Shown one piece after another: positions 24,129 through 48,829 of a DNA stretch of 64,000 nt (the first letter of the stretch is position 1; each line of letters opens with the position of its first letter). The translations under genes and the position numbers were made by a program. Source of the DNA: Selaginella moellendorffii. Taxonomy: Eukaryota; Plantae; Lycopodiophyta. Below the pieces are notes generated by a model that worked only from the letters and a program-made list of their open reading frames with translations, searched no databases and was not told the DNA's origin. The stretch spans positions 3,460,387-3,524,386 of the forward strand of contig NW_003314267.1 of NCBI RefSeq assembly GCF_000143415.4, in the 5' to 3' direction.

Positions 24129-24209
24129 TGTAAGGAACCGACTCCCCGAGATGTCATAGGCTAAAGGATCCCCGAAAGCATGACCGAAATGACAAAGAGT
24201 TCATCGGAT

Positions 24210-24470
24210 GGGACCGAGTAGAAGATCGAGTCCAAGACTGACTCTGAGACCGAGTTCAAGATAGAGTCCGGGATCGAGCCCGAGGCCGAATCGGAGACCG
24301 AGTTCGAGACAGAGTCCGAGATCCAAATCGGGTCCAAGACCAAGTCTGAGGTCGAGTCCGAAGTCAAGTCCGAGATCGGGTCTGAGATCAAGTCCAAGAT
24401 CGAGTCCGAGACCGAGTCCGAAGTCGGGTCCGAGATCGAGTCCGAGATTGAATTTGAGACTAAGTCCAAA
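24210..24470 (+). repeat. 12-bp tandem repeats (GAGTCCGAGATC-like) in the U3 of the A LTR; also at 44590-44850
   Basis: Directly visible; source of the ES/SD/LG-repeat ORFs in the ORF track. Confidence 0.85.
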
Positions 24471-25324
24471 TACTAATACGGGGTGAAAGCCCAAAGTGTG
24501 CGTCTCCCAAGGGGGGGGGGGGGCCAGGGGCTGCAGGGGGTTCCAAAAGTATAGTAGGGATAGTGAGGTCTAGGAACCAGTCTTGAAGGAACTCTCCAGT
24601 GGTGCTTCCAAACTGACTTGACGTTGAGACTGGGGCCGAGGGGCCTTGGGTGGGAGTGAGCATGGGCTTGGGTGGTGCCGAAGGGGCCACCCAGGGAAGT
24701 GCTCAAGAGCAGCTCCCACTCCCGAAAGGGAAACCGACTGCGGTGCTCCTGGCTCATGTGGAGTGGTGCCCCACTTGAGTACCTTGTGGCTCATTGGTCC
24801 TCGCCCTTCCTAGGGGCTTGGGCCTTCCCTTCGGGATGGAAGTGGGGGCATAGAGGTACCCATACTGGGCCGTTAGGCCACGGTGTTTCGCCCCGATGTC
24901 CCGAAGCAAGTGTTGCACCCAAGGCTTGGGATTTAGAGGGTCCCATGATCAAGTCTTGTTGTACCAAGGGGTGTTAGGAACCTGGAGGTTTGGTGTGCTT
25001 GGCTGCTTGTGCCTACGGGGAGTGTAGCCGAACCTTAAGTCCAGTTTATCCTGGGGAGGGGGATTGGGAGAGATTTGGGAATCCGTAGATGGATGGCTAA
25101 CACTTTGTTGCTCGTGTAGTGAGTAGCTGAAACCAAGTAGGACCAAGTAGGAGCTGGTACAATAGGCGAGAACCTTGGCGAGGGAACTTAGCACAAGCCA
25201 AGGCAGTGTTGGTCGGATAGACAAGGTAAGCTTGCAAATTGGAAAGGAAAAATTTATGGCTTACAATTTGGTATTGAAGCCTTTTCCTCAGTTCTAGCGA
25301 AGGATAGAGGCGGATTGCTGGGAG

Positions 25325-28300
25325 ATGGCAAAGGCAGGACGTAAGCGAACCCAGGTGGAGACAGAACCCCTGCTAGAGCTGGAGCCTCCAGTCGAACAAG
25401 AGGCTATGGATGAGGAATCCTTGCATGAGGAGGACTCCAGTGAGGAAACTTCCAAACATGAGTCCAGTGGCAAGGTTTAGTCGTCCAAGGCTCGATTGGA
25501 CATTCTAGAAGGACAATTGGCGCAGACCAATGCTCTGCTGGAGACTCTCGTACACAAGCTAAAGCGTGATGAGAAGCGAAAGAAAAAGTGAAAGACTGCG
25601 GATGCTAGTAGCGTAGAAGGTGCGGACCCTTCGGCGGACTGAGGCAAAACTAGACAAGGTTGAATAGACCGAAGTTGAATCAGTCCCTCAGGCAGTTCTC
25701 AAGTACAAACCAAAGCCCCCACCGGTCTTGAAGGGAGTGAACGACTATAAGGTGGTGGAGGATTGGTTTTACGATATGGAGGACTACTTCCGAGCGTTAC
25801 GGTTACCAAGCTCAGAGAAGGTCCCATGTGCAAAACCATACTTGGCAGATAATGCCAAGTCTTGGTGGAGAACAATAGAGGCTAACGAAGGACCAGTGGC
25901 CACTTGGGAAATGATGAAGGCGAGGATCCGTGCAACTTACGTTCCTCCGAATGCTACTCTGCATCTAAGGGACAAGCTGAGTAGGCTGAAGCAGACTAGA
26001 ACCATTCAGGAGCATATGAATGGGTTTATGGCAAAGAGGATTCTTGTCACGGACATGGGGGATATGGATGCGTTCCATGCCTTCATATCAAGTTTGCAAA
26101 CCTGGGCTCGTGGTGAGGTGATGCGTTGGAACCCAACCAACTACAAGGAAGTGTTGGATGCGGCCATCAAGGTGCATTTTAATAATAACCTGCGAAAAGG
26201 GAACACGACGGGGTCGGGGTCCACATTTAGCAAAGGGGCCAAACCAAGGGGAATGTATAGGAGAGGGAAATTCAAAAAGAGTTTCTTTAAGAATGAGTCC
26301 TCGGGGTTCCGAAAAGGTAAATCCGGTGGCCAGCGAGCGAGTATGTGGGGGAGTCAAGCAAAAAGAGACAAACCCATGGATAAGAAGGTCAAGTCGTATA
26401 GCAGTGTGGGAAACAATGTATGCTACAACTGCGGTGAAGTGGGACACTTTTCAAGAGAATGTCCCTACCCGAAGAAGGCTAGAGCCAATATGGCCATTAA
26501 GTTGGGTGAAGTCCAAACTGAGGTATGTAATCCAGTCCCTAACTCAAAGTTACTCATTACACGAGCAACTTTGGTAAAGAGTCATTTGCGACATCTACTA
26601 GCCCTCCAAGGGAAGCTCGAAGGTAGCTTTGTTAAGATCTTTATTGACACGAGTGCTTTGGATAATTTTGTGGCTGCAGATATAGTCCGGCAAGCCGGAC
26701 TAATGGTGTAGCGGCTAGGCGAACCAAGGACTATAGAGTTTGTTCAAGGTAGCCAAAGCACTAATGAGGTACTTCGACAAGCGAGAGTTGAAGTAGGGAC
26801 ATGGAAAGTATACATGGATTTCACCGTGTTGGACATGGCAGGATTTGACGTGATCTTCGGAATGGATTGGTTCAATCGGTTCGTGGTAGCCCTGCATGGA
26901 CAAGGTAGGAAGCTTGTGGTACTGGCGAATGCCCAAGGGAGAAGATCTAGAGTGGAGGCCCAAGATCTAAAGGTAGGGCAAAGCAAGGCCAAAGAATCCT
27001 GCTTAAACTTGGTGTCCACGGGAGGACAACTCACTAAAGGAACTAAGGTAGCATTTTTGTGCTTACTCTTGGTGAAGAGTGACAAAAAGATTGGAACAGA
27101 AGAAGTACCTTTAGTGATCCAGCGGGTGTTGGACCAATTCCAGGATACCATGCCGGAGGAGTTACCAGCGGGGTTGCCCTCCGCACGACCGATAGAACAT
27201 AAGATTGAGCTGGTCGAGGGTGCTAAGGCGGTGGTTCGTCCCCCCTATCGTTTGAACGAAAAAGAACTCGAGGAGCTCAAGCGCCAACTAGAGGAGTTGG
27301 TGGACAAAGGGTATGTTAGGTTGAGCAAGTCGCCGTATGGGGCGCTGGTGTTATTTGTGAAAAAGAAAGATGGATCTATACGCATGTGCATAGACTACTG
27401 GTTGCTCAACAAATATACAAAGAAGAACAAGTACCCTTTGCCAAGGATTGAGGACCTGTTCGATAGGTTGGGAAAGGCAAAATACTTCTCGAGGATTGAC
27501 CTAAGGTCAGGATACTACCAGATCAAGGTAGCAGAGGAAGATGTCGAGAAGACAACCTGTCGAACCAAGTATGGGAGCTTTGAGTTTCTAGTGATACCCT
27601 TTGGGCTGTATAATGCACTGGCAACGTTTTCGGCGTTGATGAACCATATCTTTGTACCCTATCTAGATCACTTCGTAGTCGTCTATATCGACAACATCCT
27701 GATCTATAGCGAGATGCTAGAGGATCATGCCGAATACTTGGTGAAGGTGTTTGAGAAGCTAAGGGAACACAAGCTGTATGCTAAAGAGAGCAAATGTGAC
27801 TTTGCTCAACAAAAGGTAAAGTTTCTCGGGCATGTGGTGGGCAAGGACGGGTTCAAGGTGCACCCTGAGAAGGTCCAAGCGATCCAGGATTGGGAGCAAC
27901 CATCGAATGTACACGAGTTAAGGGCATTCTTGGGGCTATGCAATTACTACCGAAAGTTTATCAGACACTATTCGAGAGTAGCCCTACCCTTAACGGACCA
28001 AACAGGAAAAGAGAAGATGGTATGGACAGGGGAATGCGAGGCGGCATTCGTCCACCTCAAAGGGAAGTTGAGGAAGGCTCCCGTGTTGGCATTACCAGAC
28101 TTTGGTAAGGACTTCGAGGTAGAAACGGACGCTTCAGACTTTGCATTGGGTGCAGTTTTGAAGCAAGACAACCATCCAATAGCGTTCTTCTTGAAGAAGT
28201 TGGACAAGGCTCAAAGGAACTGGCCTGCCCACGAGAAGGAACTGTTTGCGGTGGTCAAGGCGCTCAAGGAGTGTCGACACTACCTTGGGAGACACTTCAA

Positions 28301-28544
28301 GGTTTACACGGATAATGTGGCAACGAAACACTTCTTGTCACAGCCCGACCTGAGAGGGAAACAGGATCGGTGGGCCAATGCCTTGGCCGAGTTTGATTGC
28401 GAGATTTTGTACAAGCCTGGGAAGAGCAACATTGTGGTAGATGTGCTGAGTCGAAAAGCGAGCTTGAATTTGGCGATATCCAGTGTGACAGCAACCTTTT
28501 GGGACGATGTGTGGACAGCATATGAGAATGATGGTCTAGCACAA
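25325..28544 (+). pseudogene. Element A gag-pol, 5' part (gag with CCHC knuckle, protease, RT, RNase H)
   Basis: CYNCGEVGHFSREC, FIDTSA (protease), LPRIEDL, PFGL, YIDN (YIDD mutated), ETDASD. Gag and pol are in one frame with a premature stop at 26709-26711. Confidence 0.95.
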
Positions 28545-29184
28545 AAGCTCTATTTTGTTAAAGTGGGAATTGTCATTATCCCACTTGTAAAATAAGGTTT
28601 CCAAACCTTTATATAGTATATAAATATAACAAAATTCAACTGCATTGAGGCACATGCCATTTTATTTTAAACAAGGAAATGTCTACTCAATCACTTCTCC
28701 TCCCCCTGCCACTACTTCACCTCTCTCTTCTCCTTGTCATCGTCGTCCAATTTCTTTCCATCCTTTTAATATTGGCTCAGTTGCTCCGAGTCTAGGTGGA
28801 GCCCAAGTCCCCATTCAATTTTTACTTTCCCCTTATTAATAAAACAACTTCGTAGACTTCCAATAACATGCTGTAACACTTCTAGTATAATGCAAATCCT
28901 CTCAAAGAATTGTCTTTTAATATTAATACAATGGCATGGAACCCCATGCCATAATAAGTTACATTTTTAAATAAATACATGCCATCTTAGACTGTTATTT
29001 TTTGCCTCCAACGCCTATACAATAATCTTGGAATTTCATCACTCTCCACACTATCAGGATTTAAACCCAATAGTAATGCCATCTCTTCTCTAATACGTCC
29101 ACGCTCATGTTCAGTGGTCGAAGAACCCATTCGGTTGAGTAGATTATGGAGATGCGGATAGTGCTTGGCTAGACAATATACATG

Positions 29185-32100
29185 CTATAAATGATGACTG
29201 GTGTCTGTCCGATCAAATGGCTTCTGATATACCGTTCCATCTGCCATTTGGTTGATTTCTGCAGCCACCTCCTGAACTGGCCGGTTCTCTATCACCATCG
29301 TTCCAAGCCGTTTTGCAAGGTCCCCCAGAACATACGGTTTCTTCTCCCTAGTTTCCATACTGCAAGAGATGGGGTGCACTGCATATGTGTGCGTGTTTGC
29401 TGCAGTTTTAATCGGCGAGTCATCGATGATGAGGATTTCACTTGACCTAGCAGTCCGGTTCATCACTACAGCCTCTGGCTTGACGAAGATGGGCTTGCTA
29501 CCCCTCACATGGACCATAGTCAAGCAATCCTCCTGCGTTAGGAGAAAGTCAAATGGTAATATTACTCGTGTCTGATCGTGCATCATCTGTAGCAACGTTA
29601 ATGCATTGTGGCGCATCATGGATGTCCAAACTCCCAATTGCAAATTGAACCCGGCCCTCTGTTTTAAGTGTCGCATGGTCATTATTAGATCCCGCAGTTT
29701 CTCCCGTGTGATTAATGTGAATCTGTCTCTTTTGACCAACTTGCGACCGCAGGCTTTGGAGGGTGCAGTGACATTTGAGGATGAGCCACGCTCATGGGAG
29801 AAAAGGACACCGTTCAAATCAAAAATGATACAGTACCTTCGCCGTGACTCTGAAATGAAATGCGTCAGCATAAAAAATAGTACAAGTCAATTTTACCATC
29901 TACAATATTAGCGAATGGTGCTCCCGATGGTCGTTGAGAGGGTTTTAGTCGAGGAAACGTGAAGGGCGGAAATACTCTCCTCTGTAATGTGGGGTCAATC
30001 GCATCCCATGGCGTGTGGGCACATGCCATTTCAGCTGTAGACTCTGGTACAACTGGCTCAACAGTGGCATGGGGTGGTTCCGATGGCATGTGATCACACG
30101 CCATTTCAGCTGGTGCCTCCGTTGGCAAAGTGGACATGACCAAACAGGCAGCAGGGGCGGTGTAGGGAGGTTCCAATGGCGCGTAGTCAGACGATTGGGC
30201 ACACGTTGAGTCCGTTGGAAATGAGGATACGACCGGCTCGGCGGCTGGGGCGGCCTCATGCGGGTCCAATGGCGCCTGGTCACCGTCAGTTGGATATGTG
30301 GACAAGATTGACTCAGTGGTATGGGCAGCATCAAGTGGAGCGTGGTCAGCTTGCTTGGCGTTGATATGGATAGTAGCCTCCACCAACTCTGATGACTCTT
30401 GCAGGCAAGTAGAGTCCACTGGCAGATCCATATGCATGTCCAAGTATCTCCCTTCGATTGAGATGGTATCCTCCCGTGCTACTAAAAACAAACTCATTAG
30501 CACATTAAATCGACTATACTATATTTACCATCAACTGCTATTGAGGAACTAGGACCGATATCACTTGGGCGCACTGTTGATTCTGAAGGATTGGACATAC
30601 GTTTCGACCCTTGCTTGGCACTATCCTTCCTCGACACTAAAGGCTAGAGTTTGTAAATTCAACTGAATAATCTCTACTTACCATTTGCTCTGCGACCTAC
30701 ATGGACAATGTTAGAAATGGTAAAAGGTTAGGAATGGATGTACTATTATTTACCTAATGGTTTGTCTTGTATGACCTTCCTCTGCTGCTCTTTGGCCACC
30801 TCAGGCTGGCCATTGTCGTCATCATCGTCGTCGTCGTTATTGTGATCGTCACCATTGTGAGGACCATCCAAGTCCTCTTCGTCCTCCTCTTCTTCGTCCT
30901 CCTCTTCTTTGTCCTCCTCTTCGTCCTTCTGCTCTTCCTGCTCATTATCTTTCTCTGGCTCCTCATCCCCCTCCTGCATTTCTTCCATAGGCTGCTCAGG
31001 CTGGATGGCTTATTCTTCCAGGACCATCTTGGGAAAATCATCTGGCCGAATCTCCATCTCAAAATACAAGACATCCATAACCTGTTTTAGTGCGTGACCT
31101 AGGACCGATCCTCACCCGACTATCTTAACATGGTTTCTGCATGTTCTTGCACCCTTCGAAGACAACAAAATGAGAAAAACGTGGCCCTAACTTGAAAAGC
31201 ATCCCTCATCCATTGTACCTCTCCATTGAGATTGGGGAAGGGGAGTCCGCCTTAGGAATCTGAGTCAGGAGGTGGTGACTGGCTGCTTTCACTCAGCCCT
31301 TGATCTGCAATGAATGGCATGAGCACACATGCCATAACCGCGAGGCATTACCTATCATCTTTTCGTTGCCCTTCTTCCTTTTCGAATCAAACACCTCTGA
31401 TCCCGACGACTGTCCAACATGCTTTCACTTTTTATGACCACTGTCAGTTTGAGCTTGGCTGGTGCTTGCCTGTTTTGCCTTTGAAGAAGTGTCTCCTACA
31501 AGGAATGGCATGAGACCACACGCCATTGCAAATGTAATTTGTACCTCCTTTTTTCCTATTGCTTGTCTGTTTGTCCTTCTTCGACGCGCCACTAGTGCGC
31601 TTTTCAGTCCTCGTGTCTAAATATTCACAACGATCTATAATCAAAATGGCGTGAGGCCTCACGTGACCTTACCTTGTGCAGGTTGTGAGCTCGGCCCAAC
31701 ATGGGTATCTTCAACAGTAGCTGTTAACGCCGTTTCAGCATCTGGGGGTGGCCACGCTGCTGCATACAGAGCTTGTGAGATAACATTTAAACTTAAAGTG
31801 CGTACTCACCAGGTTCGCAGAGAAGATACTGTTTTTCTTTGGCAACTGTAATTATATGCTCCATTGAAGTCACCTCTTCAATGGAGTTTGTCACCGCAAC
31901 ACACGGGACACCCTTGAGTAGTGCGCTCGAAAGAATAGTCCGCCGCAGTTGTACTCGACAACGCATTTGCCCTTGNNNNNNNNNNNNNNNNNNNNNNNNN
32001 NNNNNNNNNNNNNNNNNNNNNNNNNNNNNNNNNNNNNNNNNNNNNNNNNNNNNNNNNNNNNNNNNNNNNNNNNNNTTTCCCATGCTGCACCTGGAGCTTT

Positions 32101-34414
32101 CTTTGGATTCGAAAGCTCTATAGCCGTCTTTAGTTCCTCAGGCACGGGTAAATTGACCTCCCTCAGATCAATTTGATCGGCCTTGTCCAAACGAAGCTGG
32201 GAAGTCACTCCAATCCCACTCTGCTGTAGGACCAATAACAAGGGCGAGTGTGAAGATGCGGACATTCGTCGGTATCTTCTTCTTAGCCATTATCCCATGG
32301 ATCTCCCGCATCTCCTTGCCTTTCAACCGAGCCTTCACCTCGTTCAAGGCCTTCCAGAACTTGTGATAGGATTCAGAGTCATAGATCATATAGTGGACTG
32401 AAGATTCCACCTCCGCAAATCCCACCATTAAGTCAATGATGGAGCTGACTTCGTTTGCATGAGTGATCTCCTCATTTGTGAAGTCCATCACACAAAAGAT
32501 GTTCTTGACCTGCTCATCTCCACGGGAAACGATGCTCCTCCACCTTTGATCCTCATCCGAATTCACGTATACCCGGTAAGGTTCTCGATAGGCCTCTGCT
32601 GCGGGGTCGAGCTGTTTCTGAAGCCGGCAGTCGACATCCCTCTTAATGAAATTTGGATACTGATCCAACTTCTCAGCTTTACTTTTCGTGGCATCCCGCA
32701 GCAGATCGATGAACTTGGGGGCCCCCTTCACGTACTCGTCGATGTCTTCATTTGACAACTCCAGCGCTTCTATCATCTCTTGGGTGGTGTCGATGCTCAC
32801 CCTCTCCATGGCCACTTGCTTGAAGATCCAATCCTTCAATAGCGCACGAGCTCTCAGAGTCGTGCACAAGTCCTCGTATGTCACAATATGGCCGGGAGTC
32901 ATTTTGGTCTTGTTGAAGACTACCTCACCACGTAGAAGAGCATTAGCCACTGTCAGAAGGTCGTCGTCGTCTAGAGACCGCGAGAAACGCAAGGCGTTGA
33001 GCTTCAAATCATTGGGCTTCCGGCCGTCCTCCACACCCATTGAGTTTAGCAACTCCTCGTCATGGTACCTCCTCAACACATCTACCCATTTGTCAAAAAC
33101 AACTTTTGTCGCGAGTAGAATGTTATGGATGCTGAGTGTGTCATTGACCCCCAGTGTTTTCGAGAGAAGACTCGAGAATTCCTGCAATGGAAATGGCGTG
33201 AGGCCACATGCTATGCCACATGCAACAAGGCTTACCTGCCAAGCGCTAGTTGCTAGTGCACGTCCTTGTCCTGGTTTTTGTGGATTCTTTAGTTGAACCC
33301 AGAGCTTCCGTGTTCGTGCCAATGTTTCATGCAGACCCAATTTGTAGCACGTTTCTTGCTTGACATTCTGCGCGTGGGAGATGTATATGATAGATCGAAG
33401 GGGCGAGTTGCCTTTTATCAGGCGGACAACTCTTGTCTTGAAGACTTTCTTCACCTCCTTGCCCACCATAATATCCACAACTATCTCTTGCATCGCCAAG
33501 CTAGAATGCTGCCCGGAGACGGCATAGAACCGGATGTTCTGATCGTCCAACACCTTCCTATTGATCAAGTCTGGAAACCTCATCTCACCCTTCATTGTTC
33601 GGTAGTAGGGGATCACGTCTGCGATGTCAGGTGTTACTGGACTTGCCAGCATCTTCTGCTTCAGTTTCTCCACCCACTCATCAGATACTAGCGTGTGGTT
33701 GTATTTGCTTTGGATGTCGATACGGCTCACGTCGATTGTATATACTTTGTTGGAATAGTAACAAGTACTATTATCTGCGATGATTTTTGCTACCTCTTCT
33801 TGCTCTTTCTGCTCTTTGCGGCTCTTCTTTTTGATGGGTGTAGTGTTCGAACCCGAGGCAATGGCATCACCGAGTAGCTTCTTTTTTGGAGAAGGAGAGT
33901 CAGACGTCGGCTTGAGCTTGACCACCCTTTTCTACTTCGGGGTAGTTTCCAGATCGACCCCCTTCCTCTTCGCTTTGTGAACTGGAGGCACTCTCAACAG
34001 CTCAATGCTGGAATATAGTTTTTGAACATCGCCATAGGTGAGGTCCGTGGATTCCATGTGATCTTCATAGACCCGCAGCGTCTTTGAAATTGTGGGCCTC
34101 CTAGACAACCTCTCCCTAGCTCCCTCTAGGAATTCCTCATAACCACTGCCCCCCTCCGGGAAGCCGCTAGGATGTGCAAGGTGGATCTTGAAGGCAGACG
34201 CTGTCTCTACCATAAGTGCCAGTCCATATTCTTGCATGGAACTGTATGGAGTGTCTGTCACTTGGATGAGGATCCCCATGCATTCTTTTCTCCCACCATC
34301 TGTGTTGTACAGCCTCAGATCCTCGCCTTCCATCCCGAAAGTCCAACTGGTGAGCTCCTCCCCCTTCTCTGCATCCACATTGATAGTGGCTGGAAGAAGA
34401 ATGCAATTCCTCTC
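29185..34414 (-). pseudogene. Multi-exon cargo gene: ParB/Srx-like domain, degenerate DNA-MTase-like fold, K-rich/acidic/Pro-rich linkers, FCP1/NIF-like HAD phosphatase domain
   Basis: A chain of GT-AG introns of ~45-57 nt keeps one frame (33182-33235, ~31760-31809, 31617-31672, 31496-31544, 31305-31351, ~30697-30754, ~30637-30681, ~30482-30528, ~29849-29897). Motifs FYAVSGQHS (33504-33529), IFDLNGV, VWTS, IIDDSP. Several stops are CAA/CGA>TAA/TGA, with a few frameshifts near the N gap. The first exon(s) probably lie upstream (donor at 34756). Confidence 0.75.
31976..32075. other. Assembly gap (100 N)
   Basis: Run of N. Confidence 1.
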
Positions 34415-35325
34415 CTGTTCAGAAATGCACAACAATTAGAGTTGACAGATGAAAAGCTAGCAGCTGGAAATAACGTGAGGCTACATGCCATTCACCACTG
34501 CATCATATGTCTTGAGGCTGCATCCTAAGATGGTGTGAGGCTACACGCCATCTATAACCGGACTGCACTCGAGAGCCCAATCGGTGCATGTCAATGTTGC
34601 TACTGAATGGCATGTGGCCTCATGCCATTTTCTACTTGGCCTAAAAGACTTACCATTTGAAGCCGAATGGAGGCGTGACAATCGAGGCCGGACTCGCTGG
34701 CAAATGTGCACTGTGTGTGTAGCGGATCGTAGCAGCAAGGCTACTCTGCCACTTACAGTTGGAGAGTGGCGCTAAAATCTCCCGGGACGCCAAGTGGGCT
34801 GCATGTGGGTGGCGGAGTGGGCAGCGGAGTTGGCGGCGAAGTTACAAGCTGGGTGTGTCTTGAAGTGGACACCGATGCACATGAGCGCGATGCGAGCACG
34901 AGTGTGATGCAAGCGCGAGTGGACGCCGATGCACACGAGAAACTTGTAGAGAAGGTAGATGAGCGCGAATGTGAGCGTGATCGCGAGTGGGAGCGCGATG
35001 CGAGCGCGAGTGTGCGAGCGCGAGTACGATGCAAAACCTAACCTCACACGCGCGAAATGTCACAACGGTTGGTAATCCCGCAACGTCATCATTCCTCGGA
35101 CTTGGGCGCCACCATTAATTTCTGGATCGCCGCGCGCATGCATGCACGTGAAATCCAAAAGAAATCCGCAACGTCATCATTCCTCAGACTGCATGCACGC
35201 GAAATCCAAAAGAAAGATCATGATTGGGATATCATTTAATACCCTTGCTATATTTATACCATACATGATTGGATATTCCAAAGCATCTTGTATTTCCAAA
35301 AATGCCAGATATTCAGCTAAATAAA

Positions 35326-37243
35326 GAATGGTATACAATGTCCTTCTTGATGACCCTGCAAAGAAGCATCTCGATCGAACACCACATGAGACCACACGAA
35401 CCTTATAATGTTTCAGGGGCATTTGCCATAGATCTGACCGTTATTTTGCTCCAAGATTCTACAGTTTGGTGTGCATTGACCTTTCCATCGACACTGCAAA
35501 GGGACATCACAATCAGATGCGGGATCACAAGAAACCAACTTCACTAACTCTGGTTTCACCAAGATCTAAGTAAGGAGTTATGAAATGAAAGGACCCTCTC
35601 TATTGAAATGTGTTTATGGTCCAGACATATCAAAGGATTTTGCATCAAGTTCTGTATTTGCATGTTTATCAAGCTACTGAATTGCTAAACCCTAAACCCT
35701 AAACATGTGGCAAATGCTGCGTGAAGAAAGATGCCCTTTCTGGGCAAATGCTGTAAGAGGCAGATGCCGAGCAGTTACACGGCGAATAATCTTGGCGCGG
35801 ATCGCTGACATGGCATGGCAAAGTTCGAATCACTGACATAGCACAGCTGGATCGAGGCAAGGACATGATGTGACAAAGTTCAACGTCCGACAGCAAAGTC
35901 TAGAAGCTACTCAATTTGAAATTTGTCAGAGGAATTATAAGATCTGGTTTGTCAGAGGATTTGATGTGACGTTCAAGCGTGTGGGCTCATGCAATTTTGA
36001 TCCCAAAAAATGCACCAAAAAATGCTCGGCGTCATCTGGCGTTATCTCTTGAATGGCATGGGGCCGCATGCCATTTTCAAGGGCACATAGGAGTATATTC
36101 CTAGAATATTCTAACACGCGCGAGATTTTTTTGAGTTTTCTGGAGATCCAACCGTTAGATCGCAACTAGATTTTATAGAATGGTATACAATGTCTTTCTT
36201 GATGACCCTGCAAAGAAGCATCTCGACGAACACCACATGAGACCACACGAGCCTTACAATTTTTCAGGGGCATTTGCCATAGATCCGACCGTTATTTTGC
36301 TCCAAGATTTTACAGTTTGGTGTGCATTGACCTTTCCATCGACACTGCAAAGGGACATCACAATCAGATGCGGGATCACAAGAAACTAACTTCACTAACT
36401 CTGGTTTCACCAAGATCTAGGTAAAGAGTTATGAAATGAAAGGACCCTCTCTATTGAAATGTGTTTATGGTCTTAGGGGCATTGTGACATATCAAAGGAT
36501 TTTGCATCAAGTTCTGTATTTGCATGTTTATCAAGCTACTGAATTGCTAAACCCTAAACCCTAAACCCTAAACATGTGGCAAATGCTGCGTGAAGAAAGA
36601 TGCCCTTTCTGGGCAAATGCTGTAAGAGGCAGATGCCGAGCAGATGTATCTCAGGCTAGCGAAGGGACAAATGAAAGCTAGCTATAAACATGACGGGATG
36701 CAAATAGATTACTAGGCTGGTCCTGCGAAAATCAAAACCATAATTGAAAACATTGAAAATGCAAAAAGAAAGGTTTATAATATTTTTAAATTTTAAGCAA
36801 CCAAAGGAATGTAAGTAGGGCATGTGTTTGTAAGTTTAAAAATGCCTCAACCACTTAAATTCCCAAGTAAATAAAGCTGTTTATATTTTTGGTACAGGTA
36901 AACTTTATAGCGTGTGGGCTCATGCAATTTTGAACCCAAAGTGCACCAAAAAATGCTCGACTAGCATTATTCTTTGAATGGCGTGTGGCCTTATATTGCT
37001 ATAAATGGACATACACACACAGCATAATTATTCCTTTACACGGCGAATAATCTTGGCGCGGATCGCTGACACGGCATGGCAAAGTTCCAATCACTGACAT
37101 GACACAGCTGGATCGAGGCAAGGACATGATGTGACAAAGTTCAACCTCCGACAGCAAAGTCTAGAAGCTACTCAGTTTGAAATTTGTCAGAGGAATCATA
37201 AGATCTGGTTTGTTAGAGGATTTGATGTGATGTTCAAGCGTGT
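35326..37243. repeat. Direct segmental duplications in the divergent intergenic region of the Sola1-like element
   Basis: 35326-35774 matches 36178-36643; 35775-35983 matches 37036-37243. Confidence 0.9.
35685..35704. repeat. Plant telomeric repeat / telo-box tract (CCCTAAA)n; second tract at 36547-36573
   Basis: CTAAACCCTAAACCCTAAAC and a copy one unit longer. Confidence 0.9.
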
Positions 37244-37855
37244 GTTATTTTTGAATTCTCGAACTCATTCCTAGGTCTATCATTTTTGTGCGCCGTGTTC
37301 TTGGTTCCGCTGAGCGTAGTGAGCGCTGCTTGTGTAAGCGGCGTTGTGAGCTGTGGTTTATGCTTCTATAAGAGGTTGCGGCATTGCGAGTGCCATTGCG
37401 AGCGGCAGTTTATGCGAGTGGCAGTTTGTGCGAGCGGCGCTACGAGCAGTTGCGGTGTTGCGAGCGGCGCTACGAGTAGTTGCGGTGTTGCGAGCAGCAC
37501 TGTCTTTGGTGTGGCTACCGCTTCCTCTTGATATTTGGCACTTGTGCTTCCTGGTATGTTCACCATGGAATGGCTTAGGACCACATTTAGAAATGGCATG
37601 AGGCCACATGCCATCTTGGGCCCTTGCAATTTCATGGCTAGCGTATTGTCATGTATGTTTTTACTTGCCTGCAACTGTGTGTATATCAAGATGGCATGAG
37701 GCCTCATGCCAATTTTGTGAATGCAAAATTTCACGTGGGTGTCAATAGCATGTTTGAATAATGGCATGTGGCCTCATGCTATTTGGTATGTTATGATTTA
37801 GGCCATTCTCCAATCATTTTTTGTATGGTCTTAACTTCTTTTCTGCACTTTCAGA

Positions 37856-40800
37856 ATGGCCTTCAGGGTTGGGGAAAAGGTTTACATTTTGAATGGTGGG
37901 AAGAGAGTTGCAAAAGGGACCCTTGTGTCTATGGATCGGAACTTTGTTATACACTGTCAAAGGCTTGGGGAAGGCAATGCTGCTGTATCAGTAGAGACTG
38001 TCTTCGATGGGAATGTGGTCGCTATTGAACGAGGAGAGATGGTCGTCGGGGTAAATGTTGTTGTTGCCTTGAAAAATCTGCAGAAGAAAGCAGATGTTGG
38101 GGACAGCACAAGTGCGACGCATGTTCCCTCCGTGGATCTTAAGAACCGTGCTACATGGATTCAGGCAAAGGTGTTTCTAAACAACCCCGAGAGGGAGGTG
38201 GTAGCTGAGGGCTTAGCCACAGTTGTCGATCCAAGAGATGCGGTTGCTAATCAAGAATTGGGCTGGGATGATATTGGAGTTGCAATTTTAGAGGTTGTTG
38301 ACACAGAAGAAAACAGTCTGACTATTGGAAGCATTGTGCGGTGGAAATTGAGGCATTTAGTGTTTGAGAATGTGAAGGATTCACAATCAAACACCACTAC
38401 AACTGATGACAGAACATCTTTTCATGGGAAAAGAAAGTACACCTTCCTACAGCGCAGCCAAAGGGATCTGAGCAACGAACCGAAAAGGCAGAAAATGGCG
38501 ATGGAGGTTCGAATGGTCTCGACAGTTGCTTGTTGCAAGAGGAGGTGCTGTCAACATGCTGATTGGGATGCTATTGAAGAGGAGAGAGCAAGATACAAGA
38601 CATTGTCCTGGAAGGCAGCTCGCAATTTTGTGTATGAGGCATTACGGTCATTTGTTGATGCTTCAGAACATCAGGTGGGGGGCATGGTCTTCCAGAGGGG
38701 TTTGGTCTGCATGAAGGCATGGAGAATCATTTATGGAGTCCCTCAAACCACATTCTACAGAATCAAAACTGAGTTCGAGGAATAAAGGGTTCAACAGGCA
38801 GTCCATGGGAACGACGGTACGCACAAAACCAGGGGTCATGTTGTATATGGAGAGGCAATCTTCAAGAGGTTTGTCGAGACATGTAGCGAGCAGCAACCAC
38901 ATAAAACCTGCCTCTTGGAAGATGGAACACGAGACACCCAACGAGTTCACCCTTCCATGTATACCAAGGGGGCCATATTGGAAGATATGAATTGGGAACT
39001 CCAGAGTAATGGCTATAGGAAGCTGAGCCAATCTAGATTTAGTAGATTGTGGAGCAACAGGTTCAGGGATATGAGTATAGGAAAGTACTCCAGCTTTTCA
39101 AAGTGTGACGAGTGCACTGCTATCAAAATGGATTTGTCGAAGAATTTTTGCAGCGCTCAAGAGCGAGAGACGTTGGTTAGAAGGCGGCTCGACCACAACA
39201 TCGAGCAGAGAAGCTGCAGGACTGCATATTATCATAACAGGATTCTCTCCATGGAGAGACCTGACTCTTACCTCTGCATCATCCACGACAAAATGGACCA
39301 GAAAAAGACGTGCTTACCTCGACTCAATCCTGCCCCCAAGGCAATTTCCTCATCCATGCAGCTGCCTGTGTCTCTGTTTGGCATAATCGCTCATGGGCAT
39401 GGTGCCCAGAACTATGGGAACTTCTTTGTACCTCTATGGGGTGGCGAGGGTGCAAACATGATGATTGCGTCCCTAACAAAACACTTAAGGTCTCTGCAAA
39501 GTGCGCAGACTGAGCTGAACGGCCAACCCTTGCATAAGGCCCTTGTCGATCGAACCCCATACAGGGTTCAGCTGGAGGAGGAGCAAAGCCTTGCAGTATC
39601 GCGTGGGGCCCCATGCCATCCCAGTGAATATGTTGGCCGTCAGATTGTAGGGTTATCACGTGAGGCCTCATGCCATTCTGACGAGGCTGGTCGCCCGGTG
39701 AATGCACAGCCTCATCCAAACGAAGTAGAATCTCAAGGAAGTTCTTGCGGCCGATGTAGCCTTCCACCCCATCTTCTGCTCCAAACAGACAATGCTGGCA
39801 GTGAGAACAAAAACATGTACGTCTTCGCGTACTTGGCGATGCTTGTTGCCAAAGGCATATTTGAAACGGTTACACTTGGCTTTCTCATGGTTGGGCACAC
39901 TCATGAAGACGTCAATGCCATGTTCAGTCACCTGGCAGAGTCCCTCCGGCGATCCAATGTCCTCACCCTCCCACAACTCTACGATGAATTCCAAAATTGC
40001 ATCAAAGGCACTGTTGAAGCTGCACTTGTGACAGAGGTTCCAGACTTTAAGGGGTTTGTAAGAGGCTACATCAGGGATGGATCCGAAACACTGATTGGCC
40101 ACTCCAAGCCTCTTCAGTTTCATTTCAGCATGCGTGACGGTGCTCCAGTGATGAGGTACAAGATGAGAGAATGGGACATAGTGTGGCTGCCAGTGGATGG
40201 CATTGAACTCTTCAAAAGAGATCCCATAACTGGGGAACCTATGATTCCTTAGGGTTCCCCACGGCCGATGCACCCGGATGGACTCAAAGACCAGGAAAGT
40301 ATAGTGGCCGGGATTAGACAGCATATTGCCTTCTGGAAGAGGGGGTTGGTGTTTGGTGGAGAATCCTATTTTAAGAGGTGCAAGCCTTTGTTCGAATACT
40401 GGGAGAAGATTATATCTGCTATCCAAAATGGGCCGGTTGTATATGAAGAATTGGAAGAGTCCTTTTGGCTAGAACCTAGAGCACCAGATAGTAGCGGAAT
40501 AATGTCCTCTGGAAATGCAGTGATAGACAACGATGTTGAGGATCACTATTGTGGGCCGAGGAACAAGAAGCCGGATTCAGCATTCAATCCAGTACAGGTC
40601 TGCAAAGGAATGGTCGTGCTTGTCAGACCCAGTAATAAAAAACAAATGATATGGGTGGGGCGCTACATCACTGATGTAGAGGAGGACGCGGAAACTAACT
40701 CCTTCAATGTAACTGTGGAGTGGTTCAAGCCAAGTTCCAGATATACGAAGGATTGCCTAGAAAAGAGATGGGTGCTAAATCCAAGGGATCCCAGCATGAG

Positions 40801-40924
40801 CATATCGGTGGATAATGTTGTGCATGGTTGGATGCGGAAGCAGAGTGCCACCATCACCTTGCCAGACCATGCAAGAGATGCAGCAAGAGCATTCATAACC
40901 CGGGTTCAAGGTGAGATTCATTAA
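37856..40924 (+). pseudogene. Sola1-like DDD transposase (~1020 aa when two in-frame stops are read through), with N-terminal Tnp1/En/Spm-like repeats and a C-terminal BAH-like domain
   Basis: Three track ORFs share one frame (stops at 38783-38785 and 40250-40252). CC..C..HA and KCDEC Cys motifs; IIHDKMDQ, LQTDNAGSENKN and FLMVGHTHEDVN (third D mutated by G>A). 4-bp TSD. Confidence 0.82.
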
Positions 40925-41637
40925 TATTCCTTTACTAAGTTTCTAATGTATTTTATTTCAAGGTGAACAATCCAAATCTGAATCAGAGGAGGCGTGATGG
41001 CATGTGGCCTTACGCCATTCATAGGTGAGATGATACAAATAACAAGTATAAATTCTTAGTTGTTCTAGCAAATTTTACTTAAAGTTCAAGGTGAACAAGC
41101 CGAATATGAATTCATTGGATTGTTATAACAAATTGCGAGGTGATGGCATGAGGCGATACGCCATTTGAGAGTGGTAGCCATTCCTATATGAGGTGAGTGA
41201 AATATTTATTAGAAATACCTCATTCAATTGTGCACTTCTAAGTCTTGGTCCACTCAGAACTGTTTGCATGTTTCTATTTTAATTCTTTCTCTAAAATGTT
41301 ATTTAGCATGTGGCTTCATGCCATTGCTCTCCACAATCATGCATTGAATTTTTCTATCCTTGCATAATACTTCTCCATATATATAGCATGTGCACATATG
41401 TGATATGGTTCATTAGGCCTGATATAGTGTGTGAGGTAAAACAAAGATGATGTGACATATGCATTTACCAATCACACGTGCATAAATCTAATAATATGGC
41501 GTGTGGCCCATATTAATGGCACATAAACCCATATTGTGGGCTTACGTGCTTTATGTACCATCATTCCCTTGCAGCGTGTGTGTTGGTTTCCTTTTATAAC
41601 ACAACGAACTCCATATTTTAGGGTGAAGAGCGTTCTC

Positions 41638-41895
41638 ATGGCAAGCACAAAATCTGTAAGTGAGGCAGAAAAGGAGACGGAGAAGGAGATAGGTGAAGAT
41701 GTAGAATATATAAGTCTTCCAAACTCCCCGTACTATACTCCAGGTGATCATTTTTCTGAACAAACGGCAACATTAACAACTATCGAGAATGCCCCAGTAA
41801 CGTCAGAGACAACAATCCAAAGCAAAACAACTGACCTGGAGAAGGATGATAGTACCGCTGAGAGTACCAAAAAGGAGGTGTCCACTAGCGCTTAG
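41638..41895 (+). CDS. Possible small acidic, S/T/E-rich ORF or terminal exon inside the Sola1-like element
   Basis: Open frame with coding-like composition in an AT-rich context, preceded by a possible acceptor (TTTTAG). No recognisable domain. Confidence 0.3.
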   Translation: MASTKSVSEAEKETEKEIGEDVEYISLPNSPYYTPGDHFSEQTATLTTIENAPVTSETTIQSKTTDLEKDDSTAESTKKEVSTSA

Positions 41896-42555
41896 GCTTA
41901 TAATGGCGTGTGCCCTCATGCCATTTACTTGATCACCAAATACCTTTTTCCCTTTGCACTAGTATATCTTAATACCGGTCTGAGAAATAGAATGGCATGT
42001 GCCCTCAGGCCTTTTACTAAATCACCTTTGAAAGAAATGCAAGCCTCTATGTCGTAAAAAAAAGGTACTAGAAAAATTCCTTAATAATATGAATGTTATT
42101 TAGTTTCATGAAAATACACTAAGGGTCAAATGAGTTAAATGACTTCTCCAGACTAGCAATGCCTCTTGCTACACCTTCACAATTAGATTCGTTAGAAAAA
42201 GATAACATTGAATAATATCTAAATGTTCTCACCATTAAGTTATATGTCTGGCTAATAGGAATGACGTTCATCTTGGAAAGCTCACCACACGCTCAATGAA
42301 CAAACAAATAGTGTGTGCGCGCATGCCATCGCTCTTCTTTAGCTTCAGATTCGGCTTGTTCACCTTGACAATGAGATTTATTATACAACCAGATGGACTC
42401 AGTCTGGACACAAAGTCACCACGCTAGTCACCATGCCCCAGATATGTCTAGCCCCTGGATAAAAAACATATAATTTCACGTCATTTTCAAATACTTGAAA
42501 ATTTGTACCTAGTCCCATTTTACTGAATAAATCCCACTTTAACGAAATAGAGCTT

Positions 42556-44110
42556 ACAAGAAGTGTTGCTGAGGAATCTAGAGGCACGGGAAGCTCACCA
42601 AAGAGGTGGGCTGCCAACGGAAGAGAAAACGGGCTATGCGGAACGCAACGAACTCATCTATTACAAGCAAACGAGGGTGTATGTTCCAGAAGGGGAACTA
42701 AGGAAGGTAGCCTTAGAAGAGTGTCATGACGGACCTCTTGCGGGACACAGCGGAGTGCCCAAGACAATGGTCTTACTCAAGAGGAAGTACTATTGGCCAG
42801 ATATGGCTAAGGATATCCAAGACTATGTAAAGACATGTCCAACATGTCAGCAGGTCAAAGCCGTGACTAAGGCTAGTGGGGGCTTGTTGCAGAGCATCCC
42901 AATTCCAGATCATCTGTGGAAATGTCTTACGATGGACTTCATCACGGGACTCCCCCCAAGTGAGGGGTTTGATGCGATATTCGTGGTGGTGGACTGATTT
43001 TCAAAGATGGCACATTTCATACCCACCACAACGGATGTGGATGCGAAAGGTGTGGCGAAGCTGTTCTTCGAACAAGTGGTTCGAGTGTGGGGAAGACCAG
43101 AAGAGATTATCTCAGATCAAGATAAGCTCTTCACTATTAGGTTCTGGAGAACTCTCTTGGAACAGTATCGCACCAAGTTGAAATTCAGCACAGCCTATCA
43201 CCCACAGGCAGGTATGGGGTATTAAGTCAAGTTTGAGGGCACTAACACTTCTTGACAGAAGGACAAACGGAAAGGGTGAATAGGCAGCTGGAGGATTATT
43301 TGCGATGCTATGTCTCGGGAGACCAAACTGATTGGGTAAGTCATTTGGGACTTGCGGAAATGTGTTATAACAACTCACCACATTCGAGTATCGGGGTGAG
43401 TCCATGGGAAGTCATCAATGGGCGAGCTATTGAAGGTCCTGTGGAACTCGGCGTGGCCGAGTATCATGGAGAGCTACCTGCAATGGAGGCATTCACGGTG
43501 GAAAGACTCAACATTTGGAATCTAGTGAGGGATTCCTTGGAACGGGCTCAACAAAGGCAAACCAAGTACGCGAACCAAAAGTGCCAGGATGTAGAGTTCC
43601 AAGCTGGGGAAAGGTGTGGCTGAACACCAAGAACCTCAAGCTACCAAGTGGGATTAGCCGAAAGTTGACCCAAAGGTAAAAATGCATGTATTCTTGTAAA
43701 TGAAATGATCTTAAGTTCCTTAAGCAGGTTCGCGGGGCCTTACGAGATTGAGGCACGAATCGGTAAAGTGGCTTACCATCTCCGACTTCCTCGAGAGATG
43801 GGGAAGATGCACCCAGTGTTCCATGTGAACTTACTCAAGCCGTACTTTGAGGATCCGCTTCGCAAGGACCAAGTAAGACCTTTACCTGAGGTTATCCAAG
43901 GGGAAGAGGAATACGAAGTCGAGGCCATCCTCAATGCGCGCAGGAGCAAGTGACAAGGACGCGAGGTGAGAGAGTTCCATGTGAAGTGGAAAGGATTTCC
44001 ACACTGTGAAGCAACATGGGAACCGGAGGAGAACCTAGTGAACGCGCGAGATCTAGTGGAGGAATTTCTGCAAGGCAAAACTCGATGTACTTATGCAAAG
44101 TTCAATTAAA
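42556..44110 (+). pseudogene. Element A pol, 3' part: integrase and chromodomain, split by two GT-AG introns
   Basis: HD..GHSG..CPTC, MDFITGLP, ISDQD, HPQA^EGQTERVN, KLTQR^FAGPY, YEVEAIL..VKWKGF..TWEP. Introns at 43212-43258 and 43676-43727; one frameshift near 43610. Confidence 0.9.
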
Positions 44111-45617
44111 GTATCAATTTGCAAAGTTGAGCAGTGGCATATGTTGGGACCCTCGCCGAAGGTAAGCTAATTAGCATGGGTTAGCTAGGTCGACCAGGCA
44201 TAGGGCACTACGCCCGACTCCCCGTAGGGATGTCAAATCCGTAGACGTATTCTACGGAGGTTGGGTTTGAGTCCCAACCCCCTAGTAAAGCAAGGCTGGG
44301 TTCAAGTCAAGACCCCATACTAGGGTGTGGTGAGGTGAGGGGTATAGGGACATTTATATTCCGTTGTCATGGGCTCTTGGCCGGGGAGGCTAACTTAGGC
44401 ACACCACTAAGTGGGAGGATGCTCCCGGAGACATGGTCAACAAGTTGTAGGATAAAAAGAGACGTTCGATGTGGGCATCGAACTTCTTCTATGGGTGGTG
44501 GAGTTGTAAGGAACCGACTCCCCGAGATGTCGTAGGCTAAAGGATCTCCGAAAGCATGACCGAAATGACAAAGAGTTCATCGGATGGGACCGAGTCGAAG
44601 ATTGAGTCCAAGACCGACTCTGAGACCGAGTTCGAGATAGAGTCCGGGATCGAGCCCGAAGCCGAATCGGAGACTGAGTTCGAGACAGAGTCCGAGATCC
44701 AAATCAGGTCTGAGACCGAGTCCGAGGTCGAATCCGAAGTCGAGTCCGAGATCGGGTCCAAGATCGAGTCCAAGATCGAGTCCGAGACCGAGTCCGAAGT
44801 CGGGTCTGAGATCGAGTCCGAGATCGAATCTGAGACTAAGTCCAAATACTAATACGGGTCAAGGGGTGAAAGCCCAAAGCATGCGTCTCCCGGGGGGGGG
44901 GGGGCTGTAGGGGGTTCCAAAAGTATAGTAAGGATAGTGAGGTCCAGGAACCAGTCTTGAAGGAACTCTTTAGTGGTGCTTCCAAACTGACTTGACGTTG
45001 AGACTGGGGCCGAGGGGCCTTGGGTGGTGCCGGAGGGGCCACCTAGGGAAGTGCTCAAGAGCAGCTCCCACTCCCGAAAGGGAAACCGACTACAGTGCTC
45101 CCGGCTCATATGGAGTGGTGCCCCACTTGAGTACCTTGTGGCTCATTGGTCCTCGCCCTTCCTAGGGGCTTGGGCCTTCCCTTCAGGATGGAAGTGGGGG
45201 GGTAGAGGTACCCATACTGGGCCGTTAAGCCACAGTGTTTCGCCCCGATGTCCCGAAGCAAGTGTTACACCCAAGGCTTGGGATTTAGAGGGTCCCATAA
45301 TCAAGTCTTGTTGTACCAAGGGGTGTTAGGAACCTGAAGGCTTGGTGTGCTTGGCTGCTTGTGCATGCGGGGAGTGTAGCCAAACTTTAAGTCTAGTCTA
45401 ACCCAGGGAGGGGGATTGGGAGAGACTTGGGAATCCGTAGATGGATGGCTAACACTCCGTTGCTCGTGTAGTGAGTAGCTGAAACCAAGTAGGACCAAGT
45501 AGGAGCTGGTACAATGGGCGAGAACCTTGGCGAGGGAATTTAGCACAAGCTAAGGTAGTGTTGGTCGGATAGACGAGGTAAGCTTGCAAATTGGAAAGGA
45601 AAAATTTGTGGCTTACA

Positions 45618-48307
45618 CCAGGTTCTTCCGCTTCAATAATGAAGTAACGGCAGAATGGTCACCTTCAAGTAACGTCTGAGAACCATGTAGATATGCATGA
45701 ATTTTCTCAAAACCCCAAACTGCAGCAAAACACTCCTTCTCTGTCGTGGAAGAGTTCACCTCTACTAGTTGTAACGTACGGCTTATATATGCAATAGGAT
45801 GATGCTGACCAGGCACACTTGGGCTTTCTTGCATCAACACACCTCCAAGACCAATATCAGAAGCATCTACATGCAAAATAAAAGGTCGAGTGTAGTTAGG
45901 ATATGCCAAAACCGGAGGAATCGTCAACAGCTCTTTGAGATCCACAAACACCCGCTCACAATCTAAAGACCAGATGAAAGATGACGTTGATGACTTCAGC
46001 AACGCTCGCAATGGTGCAGTGCGATCAGAAAGATGATCCACAAAACGACCGAGATACTGCATCTTGCCCAGGAAGTACTGCATATCATTCACACACTTCA
46101 GAGTAGGGAACTTTAGAATGGCTACAAGTTTGTTAGGATCAACTTGCTAACCCTCACGAGAAATACAGTACCCAGGATAAGTTGTGTCCTTGGACCCAAA
46201 CACGCACTTCGACCGCTTCAGCTTTAAACCAATGTCCCATAGTTGATCTAACACTTTACACACATCACGAATGTGCTCCTCCCACATCCCCTCCAAGTGA
46301 ATCAAGACATCATTGATGAAGTCAGCAGTCACCTCTGGCATATCACAAAGAACCTCGTCCATCATCCGCTAGAAAGTTGTTGGAGCATTGTTCAAACCAA
46401 ATGGCATCATCAAGAACTCGTACAAACCAAATGGTGTACGAAAAGCAGTCTTAGGAATATCTTCTTCGGCCATTAGTACTTGCCAGTGTACCCAGAAGCA
46501 AGATCTAGCTTGGTGAACCAACGACTTCGCCCCAGACGATCCAAGAGATCAGCAGTGTGAGGAAGAGGGTACACATCCGGGATCGTCACTTCATTTAACG
46601 GACAATAGTCGATGCAAAAACAAATACTCCCATCAGGCTTCGTCACAAGATGAGGTTCACATGCCCAAGGACTTTGCAACTTCCGACACCCTTCTCCAAC
46701 ATCTCTTTGACATTTGCATGTAAAATCTTGATCTCCTTGGGTGACCAACGATGAATATGAACCTTGATTAGACGAGCATCCCCGGTTGGAATTGGATGAC
46801 ATGTGGCAATCTTGGCCCCAGACAAGAGGTCAAATTCAAAGAGATCAGCATACTCCTTCATGAGCCGGTCAACAGCTGCAACACAAAGATCATCGGAGGG
46901 ATCAGAAAAGGGAAGAGCAGAACAAATGAAAACACAGGAGGAAATAGTGGGGGAACAAAAGTAATGGAAGCAGAGGTAGAAGTAGAGGGACGAAGAGGTA
47001 TGGAAGTGAGAGGAATGGATGAAACATAAGGAAGTATGAAACAAGGGGGAGAAGCCTCAAAGTCACACTTGGCATGATTTCGCTGCAATCAATCTATACC
47101 AAGAATGAGGTCAAAAGCTTGACTCGGCACCACCCGCAACGACTGCAACTCAAGCTCGAGATTGCCCACACGCACAACCAGGTCCGCTTCATCTCGTGCA
47201 CACGCATGTGTACGGCCGTTGCCATAAAGAATGAAAACTAAATCTACCGCATGACGCAAGTGTAGACGACAACATGTGGCAACAGGTCGAGCAATAGAAG
47301 ATAAACTCGAACCTGTATCAACCAAATAGAGAGAATAATAGGAGACCTCTTGTTATAAAAAGCAGCTTGGAAAATAAACACTGGATGAACCGGTGCCGAG
47401 TGAACCCCTTGATGATACTTCCGAAAGAAAAATAGAGGGGTCACTAATTTATTCGCGCAAGGTCCCTCCGTTACTCATGTACCTCCTTGTTTCCTGGATG
47501 CACCTCGGTGTCCAAACCTTCCACCGCAGTAGCACCAACAGGACGTTGCTGACGCCAAGGTCTCCACCCAGGAAATGGAGGTCGCCAATCCGGAAAGCGC
47601 CGACAACGCTGATAAGTATGACCAACTTCATCACACGCCCAATAACGAACATCACGGCCACGACCACGTCCTCGCCCTTGTCCTTGGACTCGAGTAACAG
47701 CAGCATCAACCTCCATTGGAACAGGACCATCACCCATAGAAAGTGGAGCTAAAGGACGTGCAATGAGAATTAGAAGAGGCGATATCTTGATGCAATTTGG
47801 CATTCGTTTCCAAAGTCTTTTACTTCGTGTGGAGCCAAATATGTCGAAGTGGATCAAGCTAGGAATGTTGTGGTTAGCACTTTGTCAAGATCTTGTCGGA
47901 CTTATGCATGCACTTGTTCCCGCCACCCTTGACGATGGTTTTCGCTTGGCACAACGTTATGCCAACTTAGATGGCCCTTGGCGAAGACGATGCAATTGTT
48001 GGAAGGCATCATCACAATCATTGGCATGTCCGAAGGTGCGTTTGAAGATGTCCGGTAGAACACTCCAATCCCCACGAGTGGCTACACTCAATCCAATGTA
48101 CCACTGCAACGCCGTCCCTTGGAGACACGTGGGGAACTCACGCAAACATTGAGCATCATCCCAAGAATGATATGTGGCAATCACCGTGAAATGATCGAAC
48201 TAATGGTACATATCATCCCCAGGATTCCCACGAAAGAACTCCGGCCAAACGCGAGGATTGGCACCAAGAGCAGGAGGAGTTGGACCACGTGCCATGAATG
48301 CCGCCAT
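45618..48307 (-). pseudogene. Element B gag, protease, RT and RNase H start
   Basis: WACDEVGHTYQRC knuckle, VDTGS, YPLP, LDLASGY, MPFGL, FIND, HVDASD; frameshifts and stops. Confidence 0.9.
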
Positions 48308-48829
48308 CAATTGAGTTTGGTTGTTCAAATGCAAATGCATAGCATCAAGCAATTGAATCAACTGCTGCTCTAGAGTTAAAGGAGGAGATTGCTGATCTGC
48401 TATGAAGATATACGAAAAAGAAAGAGCAAAAGAAGAGAAATGACAAAAAGCTGGAAGGAAATGGTGGATTTAGACAATGCAAAAAGCTAGATCTAAATCA
48501 AAATTCTGAAAGGAAAGAACAAAAGAAAGGAAATGGAAAAAGCTAGATCTAGACGATGCAAAAGTTAGATCTAAACCAAAATCCCAAATCCAAGCACTCC
48601 CCAGGGACAATCAAAGGTGCCCCTCACTTCCACCAATATGAGTGCATGGAATATGGAAAGGGAATACAAAAATGTGCATATCAATTAGCCCAAAAACCCT
48701 AGCTTATATACAGGAGCAAGTGGTCTGGATTGAAACCAATCTGATGGCTACCAAAATCCCACTACGCTAATATTAGTATACGGCATCGTAGTCGTACACT
48801 TGGCCCTCACACTTGCAATTAAATTCAGT

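Follow-up and report, generated by a model that had tools for sequence, protein, structure and literature searches.

The window, a stretch of 64,000 nt from Selaginella moellendorffii contig NW_003314267.1, contains a Ty3/gypsy retrotransposon on the plus strand, here called copy A. Its 5′ long terminal repeat (LTR; 24129-25265) measures 1,137 nt, has TG..CA ends and carries a tract of 13 G at 24511, and its 3′ LTR (44505-45617) measures 1,113 nt with a 13-G tract at 44892. The two LTRs are 94.5% identical over 1,106 aligned nt, with transitions accounting for 57 of the 61 differences, and the element is bordered by a 5-bp target duplication, CCAGG, at 24124-24128 and 45618-45622. Both LTRs harbor a degenerate tandem array of GAGTCC/GAGATC-like units (24200-24460 and 44580-44840), and a related array lies in inverted orientation at 1052-1289 (region 1052-1414). 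A 13-nt primer-binding-site-like sequence is found at 25269-25281, which we take to resemble a tRNA-Met primer site with about three mismatches.

Pfam domains follow each other in the order gag, CCHC, protease, reverse transcriptase (RT), RNase H, integrase zinc finger, SH3_Tf2-1 and chromodomain, and the gag-protease-RT-RNase H-integrase order between the LTRs is that of a chromovirus. The first coding block (25325-28544) spans gag with its CCHC motif, protease, RT and RNase H, and is damaged by stops and one frameshift; protease to RNase H lie in one frame, and no intron-like gap was seen in RT-RNase H, where the tblastn alignment was continuous over 27099-28466. The upstream part of the integrase (42560-43211) comprises the zinc-binding domain (Pfam Integrase_H2C2, 4e-23), the region of the first catalytic Asp at 42932 and the second Asp at 43115. 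A middle exon (43259-43675) carries the catalytic Glu codon at 43270 and the C-terminal half of the core, and aligns with positions 1265-1335 of Ty3 Gag-Pol (E 7e-5). The last exon (43728-44109) encodes the SH3_Tf2-1/GPY-F domain (3e-15) and a Pfam Chromo domain (1.4e-12, 43954-44106), which is accessible in frame only once the RNA is spliced. Copy A itself is dead, because it contains in-frame stops at 26709, 42995 and 43951 and several more in 5′ gag, together with two frameshifts, one of them near 43610 in the middle exon. It measures 7,477 nt without a 14-kb insertion, and its coding length without the two introns described below is 4,671 nt.

The 14-kb insertion, which does not belong to the chromovirus family, is a terminal-inverted-repeat element (28545-42555) lying in the RNase H-integrase linker, with terminal inverted repeats of about 24 nt and a 4-bp duplication, ACAA; a second family member in the window, copy A′, aligns across its empty site. 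Its frames include a DUF7869 gene (38786-40249), a NIF-like phosphatase frame on the minus strand (29188-29886) and several unassigned ones, and it is presumably Sola-like. The DUF7869 protein has a 94%-identical counterpart in a Logan contig, and the named matches in the protein search came from a liverwort (32-41%) and lancelet. By eye, a short AT-rich piece at about 8040-8312, directly upstream of A′, looks like both ends of this element. Another gypsy family, with copies about 80% alike, occupies 45811-48811 (minus), 54859-57652 (plus) and 22311-23300 (minus); its integrase at 22601-23299 has an uninterrupted HPQ motif with no insert. A Tat-like gypsy element was also noticed on the minus strand at 59200-64000, with an integrase lacking inserts at the equivalent motif and, by eye, an additional RNase H-like region ahead of RT, a layout that the available text of PMC6317226 ascribes to club-moss TatI and gymnosperm TatII.

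Both inserts that concern us here lie in the integrase of copy A. The initial annotation had described them as spliceosomal introns, and their positions, lengths and ends were confirmed: intron 1 (43212-43258, plus strand) has 47 nt, reads GTATGG..CACTAAC..TTGACAG and is in phase 1, while intron 2 (43676-43727, plus strand) has 52 nt, reads GTAAAA..TAAGCAG and is in phase 2. Neither length is divisible by 3, so that each shifts the frame if kept. When intron 1 is retained an in-frame TAA is met at 43223-43225, and retention of intron 2 creates an in-frame stop directly at the donor, which bears out the further claim that the inserts break the frame and that splicing restores the motifs. Intron 1 falls within the catalytic core, between the second Asp (43115) and the Glu (43270), and its excision leaves exactly 35 codons between the two residues, the D,D(35)E spacing of the integrase core. 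Intron 2 lies just ahead of the GPY/F (SH3_Tf2-1) tail and chromodomain, which it sets apart from the core.

Both introns show features expected of the U2 type, namely GT..AG ends and a branch-point-like motif, which is CACTAAC in intron 1 (A at 43245, 13 nt from the 3′ end) and weak in intron 2 (A at 43714, likewise 13 nt from the 3′ end), as well as precise removal in contigs from runs guessed to be RNA. The GC content of intron 2 is 29% compared to about 50% in the exons. Folding of the introns with their flanks was no better than that of shuffled sequences (z 0.2, 0.05, -0.03, 1.4). A 25-nt piece of intron 1, searched in the 64-kb window for the multiple unrelated insertions typical of introners, gave one match. 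The GACAG and AG/GT repeats at the intron ends were considered as insertion target duplications and are weak evidence of this, since they overlap with the splice consensus.

A search with the middle exon retrieved 34 homologous integrases, most of them 36-57% identical, and site 1 was uninterrupted in all 34: the motif reads HPQ[TSA]DGQ[TS]ER in 28 and [RS]PQTDGQTER in the remaining 6. At site 2, a continuous K[LF]..[RK][FYW].GP[FY] was found in 29 of the 34, the pattern being unmatched in 5. The best RT matches of copy A were 52-58% identical and included seed-plant elements. Eight of 120 RT relatives extend to the HPQ motif, of which seven continue through it and one stops 3 residues past the matched motif. 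Scanning metagenomes with the middle exon brought up no relatives; with RT, the scan found three distant loci (41, 38 and 30% identity) in which both integrase motifs were absent, and hence no intron-bearing relative in another species.

Eight of 24 listed sequencing runs were mapped to the region. Splicing was assessed over 42900-44150 in four contig sets from four studies (X15, X17, X18 and X20), which are RNA-like in that their RNA status is a guess; the run index recorded no holder of the sequence as RNA. In these sets the spliced joints, whose absence would speak against the introns, were looked for and were present at both sites. A joint removing 47 nt, 43206 to 43254, occurs in X15 and X18 (two of the four), and a 52-nt GT..AG joint, 43673 to 43726, in X15, X18 and X20 (three of the four). 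The former is identical to intron 1 after a 5-nt slide over GACAG: at 43208 most copies differ from the window (depth 643,590 of 643,738 in the DNA run X1), and with this variant both the exon end and the intron end read GACAG in most copies. A single X15 contig of 2,500 nt lacks both introns and extends 1,441 nt past the 5′ end of the assessed interval.

Intron 1 was retained in contigs of X17 and X20. The X20 contig (depth 59) carries 255 unrelated nt joined at 43178, keeps intron 1 and has intron 2 spliced; it probably represents a piece of the family within a different transcript and, being chimeric, need not be genomic RNA of the element. The X17 contigs end at 43680 and restart at 43715, both inside intron 2, and are uninformative on its splicing. 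Three runs recorded as RNA yielded 6, 2 and 0 reads out of 9.2 million each (0 in X24), and no spliced joint was listed from these few reads. The bin depths of RNA run X22 (0.75, 0.22, 1 and 0.76) agree with a single 150-nt read having 41 nt on one side of the intron 1 gap and 109 nt on the other, a reading obtained by arithmetic on the depths and not a listed joint. Also from bin depths, three RNA reads in X22 and X23 appear partly aligned at 43648-43700, end within intron 2 and continue into unrelated sequence.

In genomic DNA the introns are kept. The DNA run X1, possibly the source of the window itself, contributed 18,162 contig records mapping here, and the intron-less joints that copies lacking the inserts would give were absent among the best 15 of its 29 joints, the weakest of which had a depth of 133.5 where totals reach several hundred thousand. 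The bin depth over the introns (739,000; 767,000-890,000) was similar to that of the flanks, bearing in mind that summed contig depth is not copy number. Per-site depth inside intron 2 was 219,000-376,000 compared to 712,000-845,000 at the nearest listed flanking sites, and exonic sites dip as low (79,000-222,000, e.g., 79,000 at 43137). Rare intron-less copies are possible, since contigs drop rare variants and the best 15 of 29 joints were those seen. As copy A has paired LTRs, a 5-bp target duplication and both introns, it was likely intron-containing RNA that was reverse transcribed.

Copy A′ (8324-12190, plus strand) is a decayed, 5′-truncated family member extending from RT to the 3′ LTR, with a right flank different from that of copy A. 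The initial annotation had reported inserts at the same two sites in this copy, and they are indeed present, at 10043-10089 (intron 1) and 10495-10544 (intron 2), both on the plus strand with GT kept and AG lost. They are not independent, as had been supposed, since they are homologous to those of copy A (66% identity, 31/47, for intron 1 and 70%, 35/50, for intron 2), which rules out an independent gain in A′; and with both 3′ AG lost, A′ is no separate evidence for conserved splice signals. We therefore regard its inserts as inherited and decayed. The coding segments of the two copies are 74-80% identical and the 3′ untranslated part 76%, the coding differences being mostly C>T/G>A.

Because both lineages carried the introns, the comparison of A with A′ could be used as a test of selection on the spliced frame, with a null model of 3000 permutations in which substitution type and C/G context were preserved. 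Of the 175 differences between this one pair of decayed copies in the sequence downstream of intron 1, 76 were synonymous, compared to 57.4±4.8 under the null (0/3000; z 3.9). When C>T/G>A changes were left out, 22 of 53 were synonymous with 14.4 expected (p 0.008). No synonymous excess was observed in the two wrong frames (z -2.3, -0.2) or in the 3′-UTR and LTR (z 0.5, -0.6, -0.3), and the RT-RNase H control gave z 5.5. Taken piece by piece, the p values were 0.0005 for exon 2a, 0.40 for the short exon 2b piece and 0.03 for exon 3. Variants in the RNA-like contigs were also scored, using 39 of 40 listed rows (75 in all), the omitted row lying in a copy A stop. Among the listed sites varying between these contigs, 11 of 13 were synonymous (middle exon, 8 of 10; p 0.004), and among those where all contigs differ from the window, 14 of 26. 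These data back purifying selection on the spliced frame downstream of intron 1.

The family has likely been described before. SM1-Galahad is a Galadriel-related chromovirus of S. moellendorffii (Novikov et al., 2012; PMC3350952), presented in the main text of that paper as an element of about 7.5 kb with hundreds of copies and LTRs longer than 1 kb with a poly-G of 11-25 nt. Its authors described three ORFs, a main one of 3,885 bp ending in the "core Int" and two further ones (316 and 309 bp), and found "no intact copy"; the word "intron" is absent from the main text. The sister family SM2-Galahad is uninterrupted, with one ORF of 4,731 bp and young intact copies (PMC3350952). Against these published figures, copy A has the size of SM1-Galahad (7,477 nt, LTRs of 1,137 and 1,113 nt, 13 G) and shares with it the 13-nt primer-site-like sequence and a substituted chromo-box. 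It measures 3,886 nt from the ATG at 25325 to the intron 1 stop, allowing for one frameshift; the 316-bp ORF corresponds to 320 nt up to the intron 2 stop, as read in a copy carrying a 1-nt shift, which is near and not exact; and the 309-bp chromodomain ORF corresponds to 309 nt plus the stop. The SM2-Galahad ORF is in turn close to the 4,671 nt of spliced coding length. Copy A thus likely belongs to SM1-Galahad, a match made on layout, and it appears that this family was already described, but without its introns. As the outgroups and the sister family are uninterrupted, the simplest reading would be that the introns were gained within the lineage of copy A.

Splicing is used by other retroelements in different ways. 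Foamy viruses express the pol enzyme from a spliced mRNA while their genome is the unspliced RNA; there, one large splice removes gag, unlike small introns within an enzyme frame. In the material available on Ogre (Ty3/gypsy, Tat lineage; pea and Medicago), splicing is required for Pol and a single intron lies between GAG-PROT and RT, whereas copy A has two introns of 47-52 nt inside the integrase, one of them within the catalytic triad, and its RT-RNase H is independent of both splices. As in Ogre, an enzyme depends on splicing, yet the family is not of the Ogre type. The Ty1/copia elements EVD, BARE1 and Drosophila copia make spliced RNA for short Gag side by side with unspliced RNA, and the packaged RNA of BARE1 is a separate, uncapped and unspliced pool, according to the accessible text of PMC3735527 and PMC5580714. 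In these elements splicing abolishes Pol coding and the unspliced RNA yields all enzymes, so that the logic of copy A is inverted. Penelope-like elements keep introns after retrotransposition, but they belong to a different order of retroelements and have no LTR/integrase cycle, and most of their introns covered in the available text of PMC8557442 sit in the 5′-UTR or close to the N-terminus. A cryptic intron of Tf2 is on record in the literature consulted. Full-text searches of mainly open-access literature turned up no account of an intron within the integrase of an LTR element, and only two papers there name Galahad together with Selaginella; the available portions of PMC12477816, PMC13148404, PMC9940879, PMC6523491, PMC12130899 and PMC2864245 contained nothing on the subject. 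An earlier annotation of these introns, for example in Repbase or the REXdb supplements, is possible.

Taken together, it is very probable that the two introns are removed in what is probably RNA and kept in the genomic copies, the integrase likely being made only from spliced mRNA and copying likely proceeding from intron-retaining RNA. The initial annotation had proposed this division of labor, which the joints, the DNA copies and the selection downstream of intron 1 support. From the frames, unspliced RNA would give Gag, protease, RT and RNase H with an integrase stub ending before the catalytic Glu; RNA keeping intron 2 alone would give an integrase core without the GPY/F tail and chromodomain; and doubly spliced RNA would give the whole polyprotein of about 4.67 kb coding length. 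With a single ORF, incomplete splicing of intron 1 is predicted to keep the ratio of integrase to Gag low, and the unspliced RNA is predicted to be the packaged pool, as in barley BARE. That such small introns function would be explained by a small-intron splicing system of the host: the intron lengths of S. moellendorffii group with those of most fungi, unlike other land plants, in the accessible text of PMC6157073. A fuller account, somewhat more likely than not, is that an autonomous chromovirus family acquired two host-type micro-introns in the integrase, the first of which divides the catalytic triad, and that these have survived hundreds of cycles of reverse transcription because only unspliced RNA replicates. 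Separate RNA pools as in BARE1 would be our preferred guess for how spliced RNA is excluded.

The main rival to separate pools is that intron-less copies are unfit. The introns would be real and packaging not selective: spliced RNA would also be reverse transcribed, with intron-less copies rare as they are poorly expressed, silenced or unfit, the introns being needed for export or expression. This is a possibility we hold with reserve. Unless the mRNA has a start of its own, the 5′ LTR and primer site would be common to full-length RNA in spliced and unspliced form, and contig filtering, with the best 15 of 29 X1 joints seen, leaves room for a few intron-less copies. However, with splicing in three of the four RNA-like runs, unfit intron-less insertions should pile up as dead copies, and no such joint appeared among those 15 down to the weakest depth.

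It is unlikely that the family is non-autonomous and borrows its integrase, for instance from SM2-Galahad, the inserts being damage that is tolerated and spliced by the host only by chance. The published survey, in the text available (PMC3350952), lists no intact SM1-Galahad copy beside the young intact ones of SM2-Galahad, both copies in the window are broken, and expression in raw RNA reads is low; but the excess of synonymous differences that two intron-bearing copies show downstream of intron 1 (z 3.9, with 5.5 for RT-RNase H), the mostly synonymous variation among RNA-like contigs and the presence of two separate inserts, whose removal restores the frame exactly in each case, argue against it. 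Spread at the DNA level, by segmental duplication or carriage in DNA transposons and with the introns never reverse transcribed, is very improbable: the region is rich in nested elements, including the 14-kb DNA transposon, but this lies inside copy A and not around it, paired LTRs and a 5-bp target duplication belong to copy A itself, and the right flank of A′ differs. Translational recoding, although common in LTR elements, or assembly artefacts can scarcely account for the precise GT-AG joints that contigs from three studies show, for inserts found in A′ and throughout X1, and for introns with no notable RNA structure.

In the textbook account, introns are lost when spliced mRNA is reverse transcribed. 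Since an intron-less copy should be fully coding, the persistence of both ORF-breaking introns in so large a family means, on the reading we prefer, that spliced RNA must be excluded from copying. With its many copies, the family is a natural test case for the sorting of genome RNA and mRNA by LTR elements and for the rate at which RT-mediated intron loss occurs. It also suggests a route by which a single-ORF element could ration its integrase and possibly make a form without the chromatin-targeting tail. The published oddity of SM1-Galahad, with three ORFs and no intact copy, is apparently resolved, and serves as a warning that, where host introns are very short, autonomous elements can be overlooked when annotation relies on intact ORFs. 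If true, this would be a strategy not reported before, in which splicing turns on the integrase alone, and ORF-based surveys would misfile such families as dead.
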